A DNA stretch of 64,000 bases, taken from assembly GCF_964213995.1 (NCBI RefSeq), contig NC_135826.1, positions 9,114,001 to 9,178,000 of the forward strand, given 5' to 3'. Below the pieces are notes generated by a model that saw only the letters and a list, made by a program, of their open reading frames with translations, did no database searches and had not been told where the DNA came from. Below are positions 2,132 through 36,477 of this stretch, one piece after another (position 1 is the stretch's first letter; every line of letters starts with the position of its first letter). The translations under genes and the position numbers were made by a program. This stretch comes from Mustelus asterias (lineage: Eukaryota).

Positions 2132-5100
2132 ATGGCATCCACAACAGAAGAACAGCTTTCCAAAGTTGCAGAAAGCCAAGAAAGTGGTAACCAGGTAGTT
2201 ACTGCTAGGGGTATGATGGAATGAAATGTTAACATATTTTAAATGTACTTTAGTTGCTTGGATAGGAAAGAGCCAAGTTTTAGTAACATGTCTGTCTTGG
2301 CTAAATAACCAAGCAATCAGCTGTGCAGTGAGTTGGGTCTAACATTTTAATTCTATTGAGTTAACTGCCATGAAGTCTCCTGAAGAAAATAGAATTGTTA
2401 GCAATTAAGGCATTTGGTTCAATTAAATTTCTTAAATATACAATTAAATGTTTTAGCTGTTTGACTTGGAGTACTGAATAATGCCTAAAATTATGGCAGT
2501 TTCCCTGATTCATCCAAATTCCCAAAGAGTGTAATTTAATTTCACTCTAATTAAAACTTTCAAACTCTTGAAGCTGCTAATCTAATATAATGCCCTTATT
2601 TCAAATCAAACCCTGGAGTGAAGACCACTGCATATGTTGGGGTCAAAAATGGTCTCCAGAATTTGGCTAGAATTTTTAAAGGTGCAATATACTTATAGAT
2701 CTGCATGTTACATAACTTGTAATCATCAGATTGAGCTGCCACATCCCAATGTGTTACAGGCCCTTGTTGAAACTGGGAATCTAGTGACCCTGAGTGATGT
2801 ACAAGGTCAACTGGAACAAACTAAAGCTGTTGTGGTTGAGGATGCCAGTATTGTGTGTCGACTTGTGGCGACTGGTGTGGATATTTCTCTCATCAAACCT
2901 GAGGAACTAGTTGATCACTACCTTCCTGTGACCAAGGAAGAACTAGGTATCTAAACTTTGTACTGTCATCTTTTATAAATCAATTTTTAATCATTGCTGA
3001 TCTTCAACCTGAAGACTTGACTTCCTTTCTATTTCAGCTTTGGCTAAAGTGGCCACTCCTATTGATGGTTCTGATACAGCAACAGTAGTGGAACAGAATT
3101 ATGTACGTTTGGGATCTTTATCCTCTAAGGTTCGCAATCGTGCATATGAGTATTCTGTAGCCAAAATACAGAGAGCCAAGGAGATTGGCCAGGAAACACT
3201 CTCTCATCTCCAAAACCTTGTAGATCTGGTAAGACAAGTCTTGATTGTAGATGCCACATTAACTGTGCTTGAGAAACTGCATCTAGTAAAATTCCTGTTT
3301 ATAGTGGCAGGCAAACTCATTAGGAAAGTTGTGCTAATTGAGTCTTGCATGGACTAATTGGGCTGATTTAACCATTCTGTGAAATATGGTTGCAACAGTT
3401 TTTACTTGTTTCCTTCCCCATTACCTGATAAATCTCTTTGCATGCTATGCCTTGATATCCTTTTCCTCTGCATCTGAGATTCATGCTTGATTCTTCAATT
3501 CTCAGTGGTCTCTGTATGAGGATGCTTCTGTTAAGTTAACCCAACAATTTTTGGGATTCTTCAATAACATAACTTGTCATTGTATTTCCAGATTGAAATA
3601 ACCAAGAAAGAGGCTGAATCAGCAAACAAACTACAAGATATTCAAGTCAAACTAAATCGGGTCCTACTCGACTGGAAAAAACACCAGCCAAGTGATCAAG
3701 CTCAAGAGGAACTGTCTGAAAAACCTGAAGTAAGAACTTGATATCCAATAATAGTCTCACACTTCTAACCAAGAGACATGAAAGGGCAGCCATTCTGGTG
3801 AAGGTTTTCTCCTGACTGTCTTCCCCTCTACCGTGGCTACGTTCGCGGCCAGGTGTCCCTGGAGAGGGAGCATGCGGTGTCCACGGGCGAGGTTGACGCT
3901 TTCCGTGCCCGCTGGGCACCACGGGTTGGGGTGCATTATTGACCCTAATAATCACATTTTAATTTGATGTTTTTAAGTTTCCTTTGTACTTTGATTTCTG
4001 TTCGGGCTGTTCCCCCTCCTTTTTGGGGAGCTGCCCCTTTTACTTTGTTCTGATTTAATCTGAGTTTGTTTACTTGGTTTGGTTTGACCTGAAAAGAGGA
4101 CAGCAATTATAAGCAGGCCATTCTTCCCTAATGAAGTTGGTTACTTAGTACTAGCCCTGCCACTAATAAAACAGTGCAGCAAAATCTTATCCTTCCAAAA
4201 GGTCAACCTTGGATGGGGTTGGTTTCCTTCAGTGGAACTAATTTTAAGGTGTCAATACCTTGGGCCTTTAACTCCAAGAAGAGTCGGCTGTTAATGCAAC
4301 ATTTTGTCCTTCAGTCAATACTAAAAACACTAGGGGCTATTCCATTTGCCCAGAACTTGCTTTCAACAAAACATCCATCCAAGATGTATCTTGAGCATTA
4401 GTGATGTGAAGGTGTATGTGCAAAATTGGTGGGAGAATATATGATGGAAGCTTTTGAGGATGAGGTTCAAACTAGGAAGGAATGGATCAGTTGGATTTGG
4501 TGCCAGTTTTGGAATGGCGTGACATCAAATTTTTGGAAGGCTGGTCAGGAAACTGAAAATAATAGGGATTACAGGGAGATGGGTCTTGGTGACATGGGGA
4601 CTTTCAGAAGTTCATCTTCGTTAAATGACAAAAGTTGCAAACTGTCTGGATGTTAGCTGGTGTCTCCTTTGAAGGGGCAGAGGACTTATCATTTCCTCAT
4701 GACTCACCCCAAGTTTCCAAAGTAACAGCTACTAAAAGGGTTATAGGCTTGAAACTAAATTTCATTTTTAATATTGCAGCAACTTGAAACCCAGTCACTG
4801 GCTGTGACTCAGAATTTCTCTGATCAACTCCAAACCATCTGCCGAACACTGGCTTCAAATGTTCGTGGTTTGCCTCAGAATATTGAGGATCAAGTGCAGC
4901 ATGTGTGTAAACTGGCAGAAGAGATCTACAGCACTCTTTCGTCCGCCACCTCTTTCCAAGATCTCTCCACACAATTCCTGACCCAGAGTAAAGAGCAAAT
5001 GCTGAAGATCCATGAGGGACTGGAAGGGGTGATGGATTACCTGCTTCATGCCACACCTCTTAACTGGCTGGTGGAACCCTTCATCCCCCAGGTCACTGAA

Positions 5101-5822: not shown

Positions 5823-6699
5823 GCTTTTTCGGGTACCAACGTAATAAACGAACTCAAATTAACTTAGGGACAAAGTAAAAGGGGTGGCTCCCCAAAAGGA
5901 AGGGGAGAACAGCCCGAATCAAAGTCGAAAGGAAACTTAAAACGTCAAACCAAAAGGTGATTATCAGGGTTGATAATACACCCCAGCCCCTGCGGTGCCC
6001 AGCGGTCGCGGAAGGTGTCAACTGCGCTGGTGGACACCACATGCTCCCTCTCCAGAGACATGTAGCCGCGGTAGAGGGGCAGACAGTCGGGATGGATGGC
6101 CCCGTCAATCACCCGCTGCCTGGACCTATTGATGGCGCGTCTCGCCAGGAGCAGGTTCACGAGGAGGTCAGCAAACTGACCCGCCCCTCTCCGCACCAGG
6201 TGCCTGTAGATCAGGAGCGTGAGACTGAAGTGCAAACAAAACATCAGTAAGAGGTGTTTCAGGAAACCAAAAAGGGTGTGCAGCCTAAAACACAGAACGT
6301 AGACATGGTCCACGGACTCCACAAGGCCACAGAAAGGGCAGTCTTGGGAGCCCGTGAACCGGAAAAAACTACGGTTGTACGGCACTGCTGCGTGCAGCAC
6401 CCTCCACCCCAGGTCCCCAAGATAATTGGGGGCGATCCCTCCATAGAGGGACCTCCGCCACCCGGCGGCAACAAGGCCCGCCAAGGTGTAGCCGGGCGAC
6501 AGGCGAGGACACGGTAGTGAAAGGAGTGCAGCAGCAGCAGCCCGTACAGGAAATGCCTCCGCGCGGTAGAAAAAGGCATGGAGGACATTTCCGCGAGGTG
6601 GCACATGCAGTGGGGCACCTGACCCGGTGGGGGGGGGGGAGGAGGTCTAGGCTTTGGGCCAATGTGCAATTCCGTCCGAGCAGGGGAACGCTCGGGCGG
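5823..6699 (-). mobile_element. Tx1-clade LINE, 5'-truncated, with CCHC C-terminus and TSD
   Basis: ORF 5945-6604: DLGWRVLH..CPFCG..ESVDHVYVLC. GCCTTTGGGTA at 5812-5822 and 6700-6710. Confidence 0.88.
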
Positions 6700-7125
6700 G
6701 CCTTTGGGTACAGCATCTAAATCCTCACAGCTCTGAAAATAAGATTCTCCTCATTCATTCCAATCATCGACGAAGGTGTTAAAGTTCTAACCTGACTGAC
6801 TCATTTGCCACAGGGAATATAATACCTAACCCTTCTAATTCAACCCTCATTTTCTTAAGTCTCATCCCCAGTAAACTTTCCCTTAAGTCGTTACATCTTT
6901 TCTGATGTGTGTTGCATAGAATTGCCCATAATCCTCCATGTGACACCCAACCACTATTCTCACATTTCTACTTTTATAATTCTATCCCTCTTGCTGTGTA
7001 ATCCTTGCCAATTGGCTTCCTTTCTGCACCTTATCGATTGTATAGAACATAGAACATAGAACAGTACAGCACAGAACAGGCCCTTCGGCCCACGATGTTG
7101 TGCCGAGCTTTATCTGAAACCAAGA

Positions 7126-8642
7126 TCAAGCTATCCCACTCCCTATCATCCTGGTGTGCTCCATGTGCCTATCCAATAACCGCTTAAATGTTTCTAAAGT
7201 GTCTGACTCCACTATCACTGCAGGCAGTCCATTCCACACCCCAACCACTCTCTGCGTAAAGAACCTACCTCTGATATCCGTCCTGTATCTCCCACCACGA
7301 ACCCTATAGTTATGCCCCCTTGTAATAGCTCCATCCACCCGAGGAAATAGTCTTTGAACGTTCACTCTATCTATCCCCTTCATCATTTTATACACCTCTA
7401 TTAAGTCTCCCCTCAGCCTCCTCCGCTCCAGAGAGAATAGCCCTAGCTCCCTCAACCTTTCCTCATATGACCTACCCTCCAAACCAGGCAGCATCCTGGT
7501 AAATCTCCTCTGCACTCCTTCCAGCGCTTCCACATCCTTCTTATAGTGAGGTGACCAGAACTGCACACAATATTCCAAATGTGGTCTCACCAAGGTCCTG
7601 TACAGTTGCAGCATAACCCCACGGCTCTTAAACTCCAACCCCCTGTTAATAAAAGCTAACACACTACAGGCCTTCTTCACAGCTCTATCCACTTGAGTGG
7701 CAACCTTTAGAGATCTGTGGATATGGACCCCAAGATCTCTCTGTTCCTCCACAGTCTTCAGAACCCTACCTTTGACCCTGTAATCCACATTTAAATTAGT
7801 CCTACCAAAATGAATCACCTCACATTTATCAGGGTTAAACTCCATTTGCCATTTTTCAGCCCAGCTTTGCATCCTATCTATGTCTCTTTGCAGCCTACAA
7901 CAGCCCTCCACTTCATCCACTACTACACCAATCTTGGTGTCATCAGCAAATTTACTGATCCACCCTTCAGCCCCCTCCTCTAAGTCATTAATAAAAATCA
8001 CAAAGAGCAGAGGACCAAGCACTGATCCCTGCGGCACACCGCTAGCAACCTGCCTCCAATCCGAAAATTTTCCATCGACCACCACCCTCTGTCTTCGGTC
8101 AGACAGCCAGTTGCCTATCCAATCGGCCAACTTTCCCTCTATCCCACACCTCCTCACTTTCATCATAAGCCGACCATGGGGGACCTTATCAAACGCCTTA
8201 CTAAAATCCATGTATATGACATCAACTGCCCTACCTTCATCAACACACTTAGTTACCTCCTCAAAAAATTCTATCAAATTTGTGAGGCACGACTTGCCCT
8301 TCACGAATCCGTGCTGACTATCTCGGATTAATCCGCATCTATCTAAATGGTCGTAAATCCCATCCCTAAGGACCCTTTCCATCAATTTACCAACCACCGA
8401 AGTAAGACTAACCGGTCTATAATTACAAGGGTCATTTCTATTCCCTTTCTTAAACAGAGGAACAACATTCGCCATTCTCCAGTCCTCTGGCACCATCCCC
8501 GTGGACAGCGAGGACCCAAAGATCAACGCCAAAGGCTCTGCAATCTCATCCCTTGCCTCCCAAAGAATCCTAGGATACATTTCATCAGGCCCAGGGGACT
8601 TATCGACCTTCAGTTTATTCAAAACTGCCAAGACATCCTCCC
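7126..8642 (-). CDS. CR1 ORF2, reverse transcriptase half
   Basis: KSPGPD, NYRPVSLTS, DFSKAFDKV, GVPQGSVLGP, FADD, RPHLEYC; uninterrupted ~500 aa. Confidence 0.92.
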
Positions 8643-8806
8643 AGTATACAGCGGGCAGCGTCGGGAGCGGGCAGTGTAGTGTGTGGGAAGCAGAGTGTGA
8701 GCTATAAGACTTTGGCTCACAGGGCTTAGGCAGAAAGGGCGAGTAGGGGTGAGTTTGAATTCATTTTTGCACTTTCTACCTGGTACTGGCAAGGTATCTA
8801 GAGGGG

Positions 8807-9733
8807 ATGGGTGTGCAGGCAGTGCAATGTTCCTCTTGCACTATGTTTGAGGTGAGGGACGACGACAGTGTCCCTACTGATTACACCTGTGGGAAGTGCA
8901 CCCATCTGCAGCTCCTCCAAAACCGTGTTAGGGAACTGGAGCTGGAGTTGGATGAACTTAGGATCATCAGGGACGCAGAGATGGCCATAGACACAAGCTT
9001 TAGGAATACAGTTACTCCGGGGATTGAAAACAGATGGGTGACGGTGAGAGGGGCTGGGAGGAAGCAGTCCGTGCAGGGATCCCCGGTGGTCGTTCCCCTT
9101 AGCAACAAGTATTCCGCTTTGGATACGGTTGAGGGGGATGACATACCAGTGGGGAGCCGCAGTGAGAGGATCTCCAGCACTGTGTCCGTCTCTGTGGCTC
9201 GGGAGGGAAAGGGGGAGAGCGGGAGGGCGATAGTTATTGGGGACTCGTTAGTTAGAGGGATAGATAGGAGGTTCTGTGGCAGCAAAAGAGACTCACGGAT
9301 GGTATGTTGCCTACCGGATGCCAAGGTCCGTGATGTCTCAGACCGTGTTTTCCAGATTCTGAAGGGGGAGGGGAAACAGTCACAAGTCGTGGTGCACATT
9401 GGTACCAATGACATAGGTAAGAGAAGGGACGGGGATTTAAAGCAGGAATTTCTGGAGCTGGGCTGGAAGCTGAGAGCCAAGACGAAACATGTGGTCATCT
9501 CTGGTACGTTGCCGGTACCACGTGATAGCGAGTTGAGGAACAGGGAGAGAGTGCAGTTAAATATGTGGTTGCAGGGATGGTGTAGGAGGGAGGGTTTCAG
9601 ATACGTGGATAATTGGAACACGTTCTGGGGAAGGTGGGACCTGTACAAACAGGACGGGGTGCACCTGAACCAGAGGGGCACCAATATCCTCGGAGGGAAA
9701 TTTGTTACGGCTCTTCAGGGGGGTTTAAACTAA
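8807..9733 (+). CDS. CR1 ORF1 (CxxC zinc finger, coiled coil, SGNH esterase)
   Basis: CSSC..CGKC, leucine heptads, IGDSLVR, HIGTND, DGVHLN; 308 aa intact. Confidence 0.88.
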   Translation: MGVQAVQCSSCTMFEVRDDDSVPTDYTCGKCTHLQLLQNRVRELELELDELRIIRDAEMAIDTSFRNTVTPGIENRWVTVRGAGRKQSVQGSPVVVPLSNKYSALDTVEGDDIPVGSRSERISSTVSVSVAREGKGESGRAIVIGDSLVRGIDRRFCGSKRDSRMVCCLPDAKVRDVSDRVFQILKGEGKQSQVVVHIGTNDIGKRRDGDLKQEFLELGWKLRAKTKHVVISGTLPVPRDSELRNRERVQLNMWLQGWCRREGFRYVDNWNTFWGRWDLYKQDGVHLNQRGTNILGGKFVTALQGGLN

Positions 9734-11134
9734 TTTGTCAGGGGAGTGGGAAAGGGAGTTGTAGTCCAGAAGTCAGTGAGGGTGGTGAGGTATTGGGGAA
9801 GGTATCAGGGTCAAGGGTGGGTACTGGTAGACAGGAAGGTGGGTTGAAGTGTGTCTACTTCAATGCAAGGAGCATCCGGAACAAGGAAGATGAACTTGGG
9901 GCGTGGATTGGTACTTGGGACTACGATGTTGTGGCCATTACGGAGACGTGGGTAGAACAAGGACAGGAATGGTTGTTGGACGTTCCGGGGTATAGATGTT
10001 TCACTAAGTGTAGGGAAGCTGGTAAAAGAGGTGGAGGAGTGGCATTGTTAATCAAGGATAGTTTAACGGCTGCGGAAAGGCACTTCGTGGGGGATCTGCA
10101 CACTGAGGTAATATGGGCTGAAGTTAGAAATAGGAAAGGAGCGGTCACGTTGCTAGGAGTTTACTATAGGCCCCCAAATAGTAATAGAGATGTGGAGGAA
10201 GAAATTGCTAAGCAGATTATGGATATGTGTGGGGGTCACAGGGTAGTTGTCATGGGGGACTTTAACTTTCCAAATATTGATTGGAACCTTTGTAGGTCAA
10301 ATAGTTTGGATGGGGCAGTTTTTGTGCAGTGTGTGCGGGAGGGTTTCCTGACACAATATGTGGATGGGCCGACTAGAGGTGAGGCCACATTGGATTTGGT
10401 ACTGGGAAATGAACCGGGCCAAGTGTTAGATTTGGTTGTGGGAGAGCAATTTGGAGATAGTGACCACAATTCGGTGTCTTTTGTTATTGCAATGGAGAGG
10501 GATAGGGCTGTACGGCAGGGCAAGGTTTACAATTGGGGGAGAGGTAATTATGATGCGATTAGGCAAGAATTAGGGGGCATAAGTTGGGAACAGAAACTGT
10601 CAGAGAAAGGAACTAATGAAAAGTGGAATTTTTTCAAGGAACAAATACTGGATGTCCTTGATAGGTATGTTCCTGTCAGGCAGGGAGGAAATGGCCGAGT
10701 GAGGGAACCATGGTTCACAAAAGAGGTGGAATGTCTTGTGAAAAGGAAGAGGGAAGCTCATGTCGGGATGAGGAAACAAGGTTCAGATGGCTCGATTGAG
10801 GGTTACAAGTTAGCAAGGAATGAGCTGAAAAAGGGGCTTAGGAGAGCTAGGAGGGGACATGAGAAGTCCTTGGCGGGTCGGATCAAGGAAAACCCCAAGG
10901 CTTTTTACTCTTATGTGAGGAATAAAAGAATGACCAGGGTGAGGTTAGGGCCGGTCAAGGACAGTAGTGGGAACTTGTGTATGGAGTCAGTAGAGATAGG
11001 CGAGGTGATGAATGAATACTTTTCTTCAGTGTTCACCAAGGAGAGGGGCCATGTTTTTGAGGAAGAGAAGGTGTTACAGGCTAATAGGCTGGAGGAAATA
11101 GATGTTCGGAGGGAGGATGTCTTGGCAGTTTTGA
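9720..11134 (+). CDS. CR1 ORF2, APE endonuclease half
   Basis: YFNARS, ITETW, YYRPP, GDFNFP, LDLVL, SDHN; ends EDVLAVL, where the RT half begins. Confidence 0.9.
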
Positions 11135-12164
11135 GTATAAACTAGGGTTGATTTGTATAATACTGTTCCTTTGCAGTCTCTTGGTCAAAATCCTGGCATT
11201 CCCTCCCTATTGGCAGTGTGGTTCAACCCACTGTGTGGACTGCAGAGTTTCAAGAAGGACAACTAAGGATGGGCAATAACTGCTGGCCAGCCAGTGACAC
11301 TCATGTCCCACAAACCAATAAAATATTCAAGGCCTCAGATCACCATGAACAGAGGCACATAGTGATGGTGGAAGGGATTTTGCAAGATTGGGGGTCATGG
11401 CTGGGGAGGGGGCAGCAGCAAGGTCAAGGGGTGACTCTCAGCAGGCTGGATCCCTTTGGGTTTCCTGGGTAGAACCTTTCTTTCTCACTGCTGGGTGAAT
11501 ACTAGCAGTGGCAAGATGCTGCCCCTAAGTGGGCATTGCCCATTTAAGCATTGAATTGGCAATAGGGTAGGGAGGCTGTCCAGTGGCCTTGCCACCATGG
11601 TCTTAATTGAGGCCATAGCAGGAAGGCAGCATGGTGCCCTTCTGCCTAATTAAATGCCCCCACCTTCAAACTCCTCATGGTGGAGGGCATTCAATTTTGC
11701 CCGTTGTCTCCTGTATGTCTGCCACCCAACCATCTCCTAATTTGCATTTGCATATTATTTCAATCATTCTATTATTTTTCAAGTATGTCTGTATTCCCCC
11801 CCCCCCCCCTTCCCCGGTCTCTTGTCCTGTTATAAAATGCTATTTCTTTGTAAACTCTCGACACACAATTCACACACTCAAAGCGAGTCTCTTCTCTCTA
11901 GATGCTGTCTGATCTGTTGAGTGTTTCCAGCATTTGGTGTTCTTGTTTTAGATTTCCAACAGCTGCAAGAGTTAGCATTTGGGCAGTTTAAAAAAACACG
12001 AATGGTCAGCACACCAACAGACTTCCATTACAAACACCCTGGAATGTTTTCAGGCCCAACTGGACGGTGCCACGGGGAGATTAGGGCTGAATATGACTGA
12101 ACTGAGTCAAATAGTCTCCCTCGCCTAATAATGAACTTCTAATTTGTCTTGTGACTGTACTAGT

Positions 12165-29309: not shown

Positions 29310-32300
29310 TGATGCGCGATAAATCACACACACGAGAGGCTGGATGTACCCGGGAAATAAAAGCTTTTATTACCAACAATAACGGAGCTACTATATACAA
29401 TATACAATCCCAGACTAAAGGGTCACCAGGCAGAGCAGTGACCTTTATACCTCTCCCGGAAGGCGGAGCCAACTGGAGTGTACCATAGGACTATATTACC
29501 AGGTAGAACAGCCCAACCCTAACCCCAACAGTAACATATCTACAGACTCATAGTGCTGGCCAAACCATGGCTCAGCACCCTGGTGGTAACCAACAATGGT
29601 TCACCACATTCACCCCTCCTTTAAAAACAAAGGCCGGCGGGGCACAAAAAAAACAGAACAACTGTTCATCTGTCTATAAGTTCAATTGTTTTGGGGGACC
29701 GCACCGTCTCTGCGACCTCCCCAACAATGGCGATGACGCCGGTTCAGGCAATCGCAGTGACCTTCTCTCCAAGGCGGTGTCCAGTAGCTCCTCCAATTCC
29801 TCACGGGCCGGTAGACCACGAGGTGGTGACAATCCGCTGGACTCGAGCACGCCTCGAGGTGGCGACAATCTCCTGGACTCAGGTAAGCTGTACACGGGAG
29901 TAAGAGGGTTAAGTGGTGGTCCCGATACTGCCCGCACCGTGTCAGGAGGAGAGATAATGGTCGGGGGGTGTGGGAGCGACTGGGGTTTCCAAGCCCCCTG
30001 CAGGCGCCAGATCTCGAATCGAGACCGTGTCCTCTCGCCCGTCAGGATATGCCACATAGGCATATTGAGGGTTGGCGTGAAGGAGATGGACCTGTTCAAC
30101 CAAAGGGTCGGACTTGCGGGTCCTAACATGCTGCCGCAGGAGGACAGGTCCTGAGTACATCAACCAAGACAGTAATGAGGTCCCAGAGGAAGACTTCCTA
30201 GGGAATGAAAACATTCTCTCATGAGGAGTAGCGTTGGTTGCCGTACACAGGAGTGAGCGGATGGAATGGAGCGCATCAGAGAGTACCTCTTGCCAACGGG
30301 AGACTGGAAGACCTTTAGACCTCAACGCCAGTAAGACAGCCTTCCAGACTGTAGCATTCTCTTGTTCAACCTGTCCGTTACCCCTAGGGTTGTAGCTCGT
30401 GGTTCTACTAGAGGCAATCCCATGTGAGAGCAGGTATTGCCTCAAGTCGTCGCTCATGAACGACGAGCCCCTATCGCTGTGGATATAACAGGGGTAACCG
30501 AACAGGGTGAAAAGATCCCGTAATGCTTTGATAACCGTGGCAGCGGTCATATCAGAACAGGGAATGACAAAAGGGAATCGTGAGTACTCGTCAATCACAT
30601 TGAGGAAGTACACGTTCCGATCTGTCGAGGGAAGGGGGCCCTTGAAGTCCACACTCAGTCTTTCGAAAGGACGAGTGGCCTTAATGAGGTGTGCCCTGTC
30701 AGGTCGGTAGAAGTGCGGTTTGCATTCCGCGCATACCTGGCAGCTTCTGGTTATGGACCTGACATCCTCCACCGAGTCGGGTAGATTCCGGGCCTTTATA
30801 AAATGGAAGAGCCGAGTGACCCCCGGATGGCAGAGGTCATTGTGGAGAGCCTGTAATCGATTCTCCTGCACACTAGCACATGTTCCACGCGACAGGGCGT
30901 CCAAGGGCTCATTGAGCTTCCCTGGACGGTACATGATATCATAATTGTAGGAGGAGAGTTCGATTCTCCACCTCAAGATTTTATCATTCTTGATCTTACC
31001 CCGTAACGTGTTGTTGAACATGATCGCCACGGACCGCTGGTCCGTGAGCAGAGTGAACCGTTTTCCTGCCAAGTAATGGCGCCAATGCCGAACGGCCTCC
31101 ACAGTGGCCTGGGCCTCTTTTTCCACCACAGAATGCCGAATTTCAGGGCCTTGGAGGGTGCGAGAGAAAAAGGCGACGGGCCTGCCCACCTGGTTAAGTG
31201 TGGCGGCCAGGGCGAAATCAGATGCATCACTCTCCACCTGGAAGGGGATGGACTCATCAATAGCGTGCATCGTGGCTTTCGCGATGTCGGCTTTTATTCC
31301 TGCAAAGGCTAAGCGAGCCTCTGTTGTTAGGGGAAAGGAGGTAGACTTGATGAGCGGACGGGCTTTGTCCGCGTAATTGGGAACCCACTGTGCATAGTAT
31401 GAGAAGAAGCCTAAACATCTTCTCAGTGCTTTGATGCTAGTGGGCAGGGGGAGTTCGAGGAGGGGACGCATACGGTCTGGATCAGGGCCAAGGACCCCGT
31501 TTTCCACCACGTATCCGAGGATAGCTAGGCAGCGCTTGCGAAATACACACTTCTCCCTGTTGTAGGTCAGATTCAGGCGAGACGCAGTGCATAAGAATCT
31601 AAGAAGGTTGGCATCGTGGTCCTGCTGGTCATGGCCGCAGATGGTGACATTATCCAGGTACGGGAAGGTAGCCCGCAGCCCGTTCTGGTCCACCATTCGG
31701 TCCATAGCACGCTGGAAGACCGAGACCCCATTCGTGACACCAAAGGGAACCCTTAAAAAGTGGTACAGACGACCATCCGCCTCAAAGGCCGTGTATTTTC
31801 GGTCCTCTGGGCGAATGGGGAGCTGGTGGTAAGCAGACTTCAAGTCAATGGTGGAGAACACGGTACTGCACAATCTGATTGACCATGTCAGATATGCGTG
31901 GGAGGGGATACGCATCCAGCTGCGTGTATCTGTTAATGGTCTGACTATAGTCTATGACCATCCGGGGTTTGTTCCCATTCTTAACCACCACGACTTGGGC
32001 TCTCCATGGACTAGCGCTAGGTTGGATGATCCCTTCCTTGAAGAGCCGCTGAACTTCAGATCGAATGAAGATCCGATCCTCAGCGCTGTAACGCCTGCTC
32101 TTTGTTGTGATGGGCTTGCAGCCTGGCACGAGATTCTGGAATAGGGAGGGTGGGGTAATCCTGAGCGTCAAGAGACTACATGTGGAGCGCTTTGTGCAAT
32201 TTAGAGGCTGCAGTGTTCCCACTGAAAGCGGAGGGAGTGGCCCATCGTACTGCAGGGTTACACTCTTCAGGTGGACCATAAAATCTAGTCCGAGGAGTAT

Positions 32301-33999
32301 CGGCGCGCAAAGGTGCGGTAACACAAGGAGCCTGAAGTTCTCGTAAACCGTGCCCTGCACCGTCAGGTTGACCACGCAGCTCCCTAGCATGGTGACAGGC
32401 CGGGACCTTGACGCCATCGAAATTGTCTGCTTGACAGTCCGAATCTGGAGACCGCACCGCTTCACGGTGTCAGGGTGAATGAAGCTCTCCGTGCTCCCGC
32501 TGTCAAACAAACAATAAATCTGGCGTCCGTTTACCTGTATGTCCATCATGGACTTGTCGAGTCTGTGAGGCTTGGCCTGGTCCAGGATGATTGACGCCAC
32601 CGTTGGATCGTGGGTGCAACTGCAGGCAGCTGAGCTGGTTGATGACGGCCCCTGCTGGTCATTTGCGGTCGGTGCCAACCAAAATGGCTGCCCCCATAGG
32701 TCGCACGTGGTCGATGGCGCCAAAAACGGCGGCCCCTGCAGGTCGCACGTGTCTTGCGACTCCGTCGTTAGGAATGGCGACGCTCTGGAATCGCATGTGG
32801 TGAAAGACCTCACAGACGCTGAAGACAGGGAGACCGGCTCCGGGGAATCACACGCCGCACAGCTATGTTTGGAGGGTGGTTTGGTCTGGCATACTTTGGA
32901 ATAATGCCCCTTCTTGCCACAGGCGGAGCACAATACCGCTTTAGCTGGACATCGCTGCCGAGGGTGTTTCACCCCCCCACAGAAGTAACACCTCAGGCCT
33001 CCTGGAGCTGCTGCCGTCGTCAGGTCTGTGGCTGGAAACGCAATCGCGCAGTTTTTCAAAACCGCTGAATAAAGTGGAGTCTGCGGCTGCACCTGCCACA
33101 ATGTCCCCACGCGGTCGTCGGGGTACATCTCCAGACTTTTGGAGGCCGTTTCTAGAGCGTCAGCTAATTCTACGGTTTTAGTGAGGTCGAGGTTACCTTG
33201 CTCTAGCAGCCGAAGGCGAATGTACGACGAGCCGATTCCCGCCACGAACGCATCTCAAACTAGGTCGCTCATATACTGGGCTGCCGACACTGGCTTGCAG
33301 TTGCAGGCTCTGGCTAGCTGCTGAAGTTCACACAGGTACTGTTCTGTCGTTTCGCCAGGCTGCCGCCGTCGAGTGGCTAGAAGGTGTCGAGCATGAATCT
33401 CATTCGGCGGTTTGTTGTATCGCTTATTGAGAAGCTCGATGGCCCCTTTATAGTTTTGGGCCTCACGGATCGCTAAGTATACAGCGTCGCTTACCCTCGC
33501 GTGGAGGACCCGCAGTCTGTCGGCGTCGTTTTGAACCGCTGTGGAGGCGTCGAGGTAATCTTGGAAACACTTCAACCAATGGTCGAAAGTGTTTGATGCT
33601 CCCGCCGCACGTGGATCCAACGTAAGCCGCTCGGGTTTCAGCATTTGCTCCATGGTTTTCTTTTGTTTTTTTTGTCAAAAAAAAATTTTGTTGGTCATAA
33701 AATTGATGCGCGATAAATCACACGGGAGGCTGGATGTACCCGGGAAATAAAGGCTTTTATTACCAACAATAACGGAGCTACTATATACAATATACAATCC
33801 CAGACTAAAGGGTCACCAGGCAGAGCAGTGATCTTTATACCTCTCCCGGAAGGCGGAGCCAACTGGGGTGTACCATAGGACTATATTACCAGGTAGAACA
33901 GCCCAACCCTAACCCCAACAGTAACATATCTACAGACTCATAGTGCTGGCCAGACCATGGCTCAGCACTCCTGGTGGTAACCAACAATGGTTCACCACA
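29310..33999 (-). mobile_element. Complete Ty3/Gypsy LTR retrotransposon (defective)
   Basis: LTRs 29310-29608 and 33704-33999 (TG..CA), TSD GACAA, PPT 29609-29622; inserted into a CR1 3' fragment. Confidence 0.95.
29942..33653 (-). pseudogene. Gypsy gag-pol (CCHC x2, protease, RT, RNase H, integrase)
   Basis: CYFCGGVKHPRQRC, CSACGKKGHYSKVC, LFDSGS, PFGV, YLDN, SDASD, HHCC and DDE integrase; TGA at 33255 and frameshift near 31860. Confidence 0.9.
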
Positions 34000-35722: not shown

Positions 35723-36477
35723 TTGATACCAATCAAGTAAACGAACTCAAATTAACTTAGGGACAAAGTAAAAGGGGCAGCTCCCCAAAAGGAAGGGGGG
35801 AACAGCCCGAACCAAAAACAAAGTCGAAAGGAAACTTAAAACGTCAAACCAAAAGGTGATTATCGAGGTCGATAATACACCCCAGCCCCTGCGGCGCCCA
35901 GCGGTCGCGGAAGGCGTCAACCGCGCCCGTGGACACCGCATGCTCCCTCTCCAGAGACACCTGGCCGCGAATGTAGCCGCGGTAGAGGGGCAGACAATCG
36001 GGATGGACGGCCCCGTCGATCGCCCGCTGCCTGGACCTATTGATGGCGCGTCTCGCCAGGCCCAGGAGCAGGTTCACGAGGAGGTCGGCATCCCGACCCG
36101 CCCCTCTCCGCACCAGGTGCCCGTAGATCAGGAGCGTGGGACTGAAGTGCAAACAAAACATCAATAAGAGGTGTTTGAGGAAACCAAAAAGGGTGTGCAG
36201 CCTAAAACACAGAACGTAGACATGGTCCACGGACTACACGAGGCCACAGAAAGGGCAGTCTCGGGAGCCCGTGAACCGGAAAAACCTACGGTTGCACGGC
36301 ACTGCTGCGTGCAGCACCCTCCACCCCAGGTCCCGAGATAATTGGGGGAGATCCCTCCGTAGAGGGACCTCCACTGGGGACCTCCGCCGCTCGGCGGCAA
36401 CAAGGCCCGCCAAGGTGTATCCGGGCGACGGGCAAGGACGCGGTAGTGAAAGGTGTGCAGCAGCAGCCCGTACAGGA
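35723..36477 (-). mobile_element. Tx1-clade LINE, 5'-truncated, with 12-bp TSD
   Basis: Near-identical to 5823-6550; GCAGTATTTCTT at 35711-35722 and 36478-36489. Confidence 0.88.

Follow-up and report, generated by a model that had tools for sequence, protein, structure and literature searches.

A copy of CR1, a long interspersed nuclear element (LINE), lies in two opposed halves in a stretch of Mustelus asterias DNA (assembly GCF_964213995.1, contig NC_135826.1, positions 9,114,001 to 9,178,000 of the forward strand), an arrangement that probably arose by twin priming during insertion, with the GTATA between the halves being filler templated by the target. The whole stretch of 64,000 nucleotides (nt) is called the window, and positions are counted from its first letter. 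Twin priming is the model that Ostertag and Kazazian reportedly put forward in 2001 to account for the 5' inversions of L1 elements.

A CR1 copy in two opposed halves

The 3' half of the copy is read on the minus strand (7045-8642) and the 5' half on the plus strand (8650-11134). The two halves share a short duplicated segment, 11111-11134 being the exact reverse complement of 8619-8642 (24/24 letters), and are separated at the inversion junction by seven additional nucleotides, AGTATAC (8643-8649). A script-built colinear model of the element measures 4,059 nt and places the break at element position 2485, the ends of the two halves lying within 24 nt of one another. The motif GTATA starts at 7040, 8644 and 11135, and the outer breakpoint coincides exactly with the edge of the 5-bp direct repeat, the target-site duplication (TSD). 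Since GTATAC is a palindrome, direct repeats surround each half separately, and AGTATA stands on both sides of the 5' half. The window contains no N and no other copy of the CR1 5' half, only older 3' fragments.

A first-pass annotation of this DNA had described the strand layout of the halves, the 24-nt duplicate and the three GTATA motifs, all of which hold on re-checking of the sequence. It had also set the 5' end of the element at 8643; the junction is indeed internal, but 8643-8649 are extra nucleotides, and 8643 is only a putative first base of the element. The peptide containing EDVLAVL, which was thought to be restored by re-inversion, is already encoded by the minus-strand 3' half alone, while the colinearity that it was meant to support is proven by a public protein, P0002.

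Colinearity of the family and evidence from read contigs

P0002 (936 amino acids, aa) aligns through residues 1-440 with the 5' half at 92.5% identity and through residues 433-936 with the 3' half at 95.6%, the two ranges overlapping by the 8 duplicated codons. Contigs from four of the 23 listed public sequencing runs were compared with the window, namely X1 and X2, which come from one sample that is possibly the source of the assembly, X3, and X13, which comes from another organism; no RNA runs are among the runs listed. Statements on contigs below refer to the rows given in the contig tables, which cover 15 of 234 joints, 40 substitution rows out of 602, and 32 of roughly 249,000 pieces. In X2, at least 11 contigs run colinearly beyond 11134 into sequence found from 8618 downward, and in X3 at least 8 contigs run beyond 8642 into sequence like that from 11110 downward. 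Because relatives are colinear across the break in both the protein and the contigs, the rearrangement is specific to this locus.

The left junction is present in contigs of X1, X2 and X3, which pass from the flank to 7059-7067 with 0 differences; they enter the tail by 15-23 nt, under the 31-letter bar set for bridging. Neither an empty nor an uninverted allele appears among the 15 joints listed, which is not counted as evidence. The family is very abundant, with 79,509 contigs placed in X1, and its depth in contigs is strongly biased toward the 3' end.

The first-pass description of the copy as having intact open reading frames (ORFs) applies to the re-inverted model, in which ORF1 (324 aa) and ORF2 (1004 aa) are each open from stop to stop; in place, ORF2 is divided between the strands, and private changes are present. 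Of the 40 substitution rows listed, 36 lie inside the element. Private changes were tested at the 15 sites where at least 88% of the X1 depth shows another letter: nine are non-synonymous and six synonymous, and seven sites within ORF2 also differ from P0002. With ORF2 split between strands, the copy is dead, and its changes fit neutral drift since insertion.

Some further contig joints involve the same family. Joints 7089>9299 and 7192>9142, each seen in a single contig of X1 and of X2 at depth 22-33, have the polarity of inversions; as candidates for further inverted copies they were set aside, since short stubs of tail lying antisense within ORF1 of other copies could also account for them. 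Joint 8290>10811 marks a colinear family variant that lacks about 650 nt over the linker and the start of the reverse transcriptase (RT) domain (depth 132-159 in X1 and X2). The X1 depth is 21 at the left junction and 69-73 at right-flank sites; this would fit heterozygosity and was not used, because summed contig depth is not equal to copy number. In X13, the flanks 6849-7032 and 11343-12100 are found at roughly 94-97% identity, indicating an orthologous site there, and no listed X13 record crosses the insertion point.

Complementarity between the right flank and the element

If the inverted half was begun by a primer annealed inside the RNA, the flank should pair with the element just beyond the breakpoint. 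A blastn self-comparison extends past the 24-mer into the flank, with 88% identity over 43 nt, and includes an exact 7-nt run, ATAAACT, at 11137-11143 with looser similarity up to 11152. When letters were scored from an anchored start, the observed value was reached at 5 of 4,034 element positions, all of them at 2481-2485, and by 12 of 11,914 25-mers taken from the window. When the longest exact run (7 nt) was scored instead, 10 of 4,025 element positions qualified, at two sites, the breakpoint and position 3711; in the corresponding null, 124 of 59,560 window 31-mers did so (about 0.2%). The complementarity appears to be real and moderate, covering about 9 nt and thereby exceeding the 5-nt overhang.

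Twin priming as the proposed mechanism

In the proposed sequence of events, the endonuclease would have nicked the plus strand after GTATA, and the exposed 3' end, whose ATA matches the tail repeat, would have primed a first complementary DNA (cDNA 1) from the RNA tail. The second strand would then have been cut 5 nt away. Its 3' end, extended by at least about 4 nt of flank freed through fraying or resection, could have annealed to the RNA immediately beyond position 2485. From there, cDNA 2 would have extended 2.5 kb to or near the 5' end of the RNA. cDNA 1 would have extended 1.6 kb, passing 24 nt beyond the second priming site and giving rise to the duplication. Subsequently, a few filler nucleotides, for which the primer junction was the most likely template (AGTATA, as at 11134-11139), would have linked the two cDNA ends, and fill-in would have regenerated the 5-bp duplication. 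We infer the order of these events, the fraying or resection and the origin of the filler from the junction sequence. Twin priming accounts without coincidence for a break at the TSD edge, for ends only 24 nt apart and for the pairing of flank and RNA.

Several observations weigh against twin priming. In length, the inverted part exceeds the non-inverted one, the opposite of the L1 average, in which the non-inverted part is 2.6-fold longer (bioRxiv 2024.08.27.596794). The TSD is 5 bp, not the 10-20 bp of 5'-inverted L1, and ZfL2-1, a member of the L2 clade with the alias CR1-1_DR, produced inserts free of 5' inversion in both HeLa-RC and DT40 cells (PMC4245944), where about 5 nt is proposed to be too short to prime. 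The third GTATA abuts the apparent 5' end as TATAC, for which twin priming requires an additional templated step. The join of the two cDNA ends has a 7-nt filler in place of microhomology; as microhomology-free inversion junctions also exist in L1 (PMC2912911), the filler lowers the fit with twin priming without excluding it. Element position 3711 offers another perfect match of 7 nt that was left unused, and the best pairing register at the breakpoint has a mismatch at the primer's penultimate base and two extra nucleotides (GA). When duplex energy is computed with G-U pairing permitted, the breakpoint ranks 5 of 199 at 9 nt and 18-42 of 117-168 at 12-20 nt. With Watson-Crick pairs only, it ranks 1 of 234 at 9 nt, 2 of 190 at 12, 7 of 140 at 18 and 5 of 132 at 20, this version having been picked after the first energy result was seen; RNA-RNA parameters were used in place of DNA-RNA for these energies. 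By free energy, the breakpoint is a good priming site, not clearly the best. Finally, the internal and right junctions have no bridging record in the rows listed, a gap that is itself no evidence.

Origin of the filler and alternative explanations

GTATA or TATAC occurs in the window at 0.00145 per position, which leaves about a 0.4% chance of either arising in the filler over its three placements. The filler can be read as AGTATA, a copy of the primer junction at 11134-11139, with the next base, C, perhaps part of the element. Alternatively, it can be read as TATAC next to the 5' end of the element, as in a finished colinear insertion that was flipped later. A cap-derived base at the 5' end was considered and set aside, the base being C and not G, as was a filler brought along from the donor's own flank, which has a low prior. 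In L1, inserts templated by sequence no more than 15 bp away from the site are on record, though rare (22 cases; bioRxiv 2024.08.27.596794).

The second of these readings belongs to an explanation that we consider unlikely, in which an insertion that was at first colinear and nearly full-length, with a 5-bp TSD, became inverted later, either by staggered breaks or by a template switch between the flank and a chance inverted match in the element, duplicating 5 nt and 24 nt. Inverted duplications at both breakpoints are the signature of staggered breaks. The locus shares this signature and departs from such inversions in having one breakpoint exactly at a retrotransposon TSD and duplications of just 5 and 24 nt; a single event would have to break precisely on the TSD edge and combine one stagger of 5 nt with another of 24 nt or more. 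Later inversion explains the third GTATA more simply than twin priming does, since TATAC beside the 5' end needs no added step and the filler shrinks to 2 nt. The same flank homology could also steer a template switch, and chance alone should supply matches this strong for many flank positions (0.1-0.2% at each of about 4,000 element positions), but a simple exchange at homology would leave no 24-nt duplication. The colinear allele that later inversion presupposes is not seen among the joints listed. The first-pass suggestion of twin priming is right on the geometry and gains from two points not noticed in that annotation, the flank complementarity and the L1-like length of the overlap; it falls short of proof, and the third GTATA fits inversion after insertion, the alternative named in the same annotation, at least as simply.

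Two insertions at one site could produce a similar picture, namely a 5'-truncated minus-strand copy with its own TSD, followed by an internally primed, 3'-truncated plus-strand copy made from a second RNA and placed into the regenerated site. Each half does have its own direct repeat through the GTATAC palindrome, three target copies are what two successive events would leave, and opposed chimeras of two different RNAs are known for small nuclear RNA and L1 (PMC4476161). Such an origin is nevertheless quite improbable: by our estimate, two independent ends would meet within 24 of 4,059 nt about 1% of the time, and both halves are about equally close to one relative, P0002 (92.5% and 95.6%).

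An assembly artefact, in which a piece of a collapsed repeat was placed in the wrong orientation, is barely credible, even though the family is so abundant, none of the listed records spans either the internal or the right junction, and the left one is passed by 15-23 nt only. The window is free of N, the left junction recurs without differences in three of the four runs (two samples, one possibly the assembly source), and a mis-join would not yield a 5-bp direct repeat at both outer ends, flank complementarity at the break or a 7-nt filler that the family path lacks.

Comparison with L1, CR1 and related elements

Twin-primed L1 insertions are described in PMC2912911, PMC12016303 and bioRxiv 2024.08.27.596794. 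Like them, the CR1 copy has a tail-primed, non-inverted 3' part, an inverted 5' part whose internal end lies at the TSD, ends within about 25 nt of each other, a short duplication, and complementarity between target and RNA at the outer junction. In human tumours, 283 of 1,703 5'-inverted L1 insertions (17%) carry an internal duplication, with a median of 22 bp, which is ascribed to cDNA 1 passing the second primer (bioRxiv 2024.08.27.596794), and the 24-nt overlap found here is typical of these. In another set of human twin-primed L1, 46% have ends within 20 bp and the median overlap is 12 bp (PMC12016303). The copy differs from L1 in its probable membership of the CR1 clade, in its 5-bp rather than 10-20-bp TSD, in its microsatellite rather than poly(A) tail, in an inverted part that is the longer one and reaches the 5' untranslated region (UTR), and in a putatively target-derived filler at the inversion junction instead of microhomology. 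Microhomology at the 5' junction is missing in only 28 of 605 5'-inverted L1 (PMC2912911).

Among its nearer relatives, the copy resembles vertebrate CR1 of subgroup 7, type IVB (PMC4120745), in having two ORFs, the first combining zinc finger, leucine zipper and esterase and the second with an AP endonuclease and RT, as well as in its short 3' UTR with a microsatellite tail, its 5-bp TSD and the 3' bias of family depth. Unlike amniote CR1, it has a tail unit of 7 nt rather than an octamer (PMC4316615), and the copy is rearranged. TSD lengths of L2 and CR1 peak at 3-5 bp (PMC4245944). ZfL2-1 likewise has a TSD of about 5 bp, and its 5' junctions often contain extra nucleotides or microhomology; the difference is the 5' inversion, which is present here and absent from ZfL2-1 inserts in culture (PMC4245944). 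Save for one Nimb-2 insert, the same study saw 5' inversions with no element but L1, in human cells.

A search of the literature found no report of a twin-primed or 5'-inverted CR1, a weak absence because most subscription papers were out of reach. Ichiyanagi and Okada are said to have surveyed CR1 junctions in 2008, and their survey may already report or exclude inversions. Twin priming occurs in PMC5389967 in the reference list only, while the accessible parts of PMC4316615 and bioRxiv 2026.06.26.733778 do not mention inversion and twin priming, respectively.

Taken as proposed, the locus would be a real, single and clean case of a mechanism already known, found in a clade and a TSD class for which it has been argued not to occur. 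The published model links 5' inversion to the 10-20-bp overhang of L1 (PMC4245944), and a CR1 insertion with a 5-bp TSD would be a concrete counter-example. Pairing that reaches beyond the overhang suggests that the working primer was longer than the TSD. It is possible, though rather doubtful, that CR1 twin-primes recurrently despite its 5-nt stagger, with the primer lengthened into the flank by fraying or resection and the cDNA ends linked by copying the target overhang, so that three copies of the target would be a diagnostic mark. If so, twin priming would belong to target-primed reverse transcription in general, and primer length could not be read from the TSD. Because the family is abundant, this idea can be tested by counting inverted copies in the assembly. 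The locus itself amounts to a single dead copy with no demonstrated effect on its host.

Element identity and coding content

The element is best described as a probable vertebrate-type CR1 LINE, an assignment made from its architecture and its protein neighbours rather than from a tree. ORF1, 308 aa when counted from the ATG at 8807, contains a CxxC..CxxC zinc finger and a leucine-zipper-like run, both read from the sequence, followed by an SGNH esterase (Pfam Lipase_GDSL_2, E 6.3e-12; PDB 4c1b, E 1.2e-26). The plus-strand half encodes an AP endonuclease (Pfam Exo_endo_phos, E 7.1e-23), and the minus-strand half encodes an RT (Pfam RVT_1, E 1.4e-32). An ORF1 with zinc finger, leucine zipper and esterase (type IVB) marks vertebrate CR1 subgroup 7, whereas an esterase alone marks L2 subgroup 9 (PMC4120745). 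Among the 120 matches listed for the RT half, the named homologues come mainly from birds and turtles, at 43-55% identity, and no match carries the label CR1; CR1 is the dominant repeat of birds (bioRxiv 2026.06.26.733778). Proteins of L1 and R2 are far weaker matches, the RT half reaching E about 1e-18 against L1 ORF2p. One match, P0030, is 72% identical to the RT half and is filed under Carnobacterium maltaromaticum (a 3,047-nt contig); it is probably host DNA in a bacterial assembly.

The first-pass label of a full-length element goes further than the sequence shows: both ORFs are present, and 157 nt precede the ORF1 ATG; no pile-up of starts that would mark the 5' terminus of the family is seen among the contig rows listed. 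A 50-nt unit of the 5' UTR (8678-8727) is apparently tandem in other copies, as joint 8727>8678 occurs in X1, X2 and X3. A similar joint, 8727>8683, occurs in X2 and X13, and the tandem unit resembles a promoter monomer. ORF2 lies in the -1 frame relative to ORF1, with no ATG before the endonuclease; the open frame has its first Met at aa 203. At 9716-9745 on the plus strand, the end of ORF1 reads TTTAAAC plus TAA and looks like a -1 frameshift site; we take TTTAAAC to be comparable to a slippery motif. The tail consists of three 7-nt units at 7042-7062, ATAGAAC as read on the plus strand. A hairpin predicted before the tail is not significant by energy (z = -0.91; 36 of 200 shuffles were equally good). 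Searches with ORF1 in metagenome and viral contig collections gave no matches, and a 20-mer of the 3' UTR gave no related loci in metagenome, viral and genome contigs.

Target site and feature coordinates

The left flank is an old CR1 RT fragment (tblastn E 6e-6). In a modelled empty site with one GTATA, 14 of 295 tblastn hits cross the site and the best score is not raised (28.5 vs 30.4 bits); at the DNA level, the gain from joining the flanks as one old CR1 fragment is not significant (37/500). These comparisons hint weakly that the flanks may once have formed a single CR1 fragment, which would imply a 5-bp TSD.

Table 1. Parts of the inverted CR1 copy and its target, in window positions
Feature	Position	Strand	Evidence
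Left TSD copy GTATA	7040..7044	+	sequence; final 3 nt (ATA) in register with tail repeat
3' UTR and 7-nt microsatellite tail, with predicted stem-loop ahead of tail	7042..7125	-	sequence, fold
Non-inverted 3' half of ORF2 (RT, C-terminus); putative first-strand cDNA	7126..8642	-	Pfam, P0002
24-nt duplicated segment, first copy, the 5' end of the non-inverted half	8619..8642	-	sequence
7-nt filler AGTATAC, first 6 nt as at 11134-11139	8643..8649	.	sequence; putative origin
5' UTR of inverted half	8650..8806	+	sequence
ORF1, 308 aa from ATG	8807..9733	+	Pfam, PDB
Inverted 5' half of ORF2 (AP endonuclease, linker)	9724..11134	+	Pfam, P0002
24-nt duplicated segment, second copy; internal breakpoint at 11134 (element 2485 of 4059)	11111..11134	+	sequence
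Right TSD copy GTATA, immediately beside breakpoint	11135..11139	+	sequence
Target DNA like element just past breakpoint; putative second primer	11135..11152	+	blastn, nulls
Target: old decayed CR1 RT fragment, may resume at 11140-11169	6892..7039	-	tblastn

Other repeats in the window

Repeated 3' ends of another LINE family lie at 5834-6551 (minus strand), 35727-36477, 728-1463 and 3810-4081, the two longest being 88.7% alike. The frame at 5945-6646 has no Pfam match, and its Cys/His-rich end presumably resembles that of Tx1/L1 elements. Additionally, a long terminal repeat (LTR) retrotransposon, which we take to be of gypsy type, occupies 29310-33999 on the minus strand. Its direct repeats of about 300 nt (29310-29608 and 33704-33999) are 96.7% alike, and they enclose discontinuous frames resembling gag/protease/RT and RT/RNase H/integrase.

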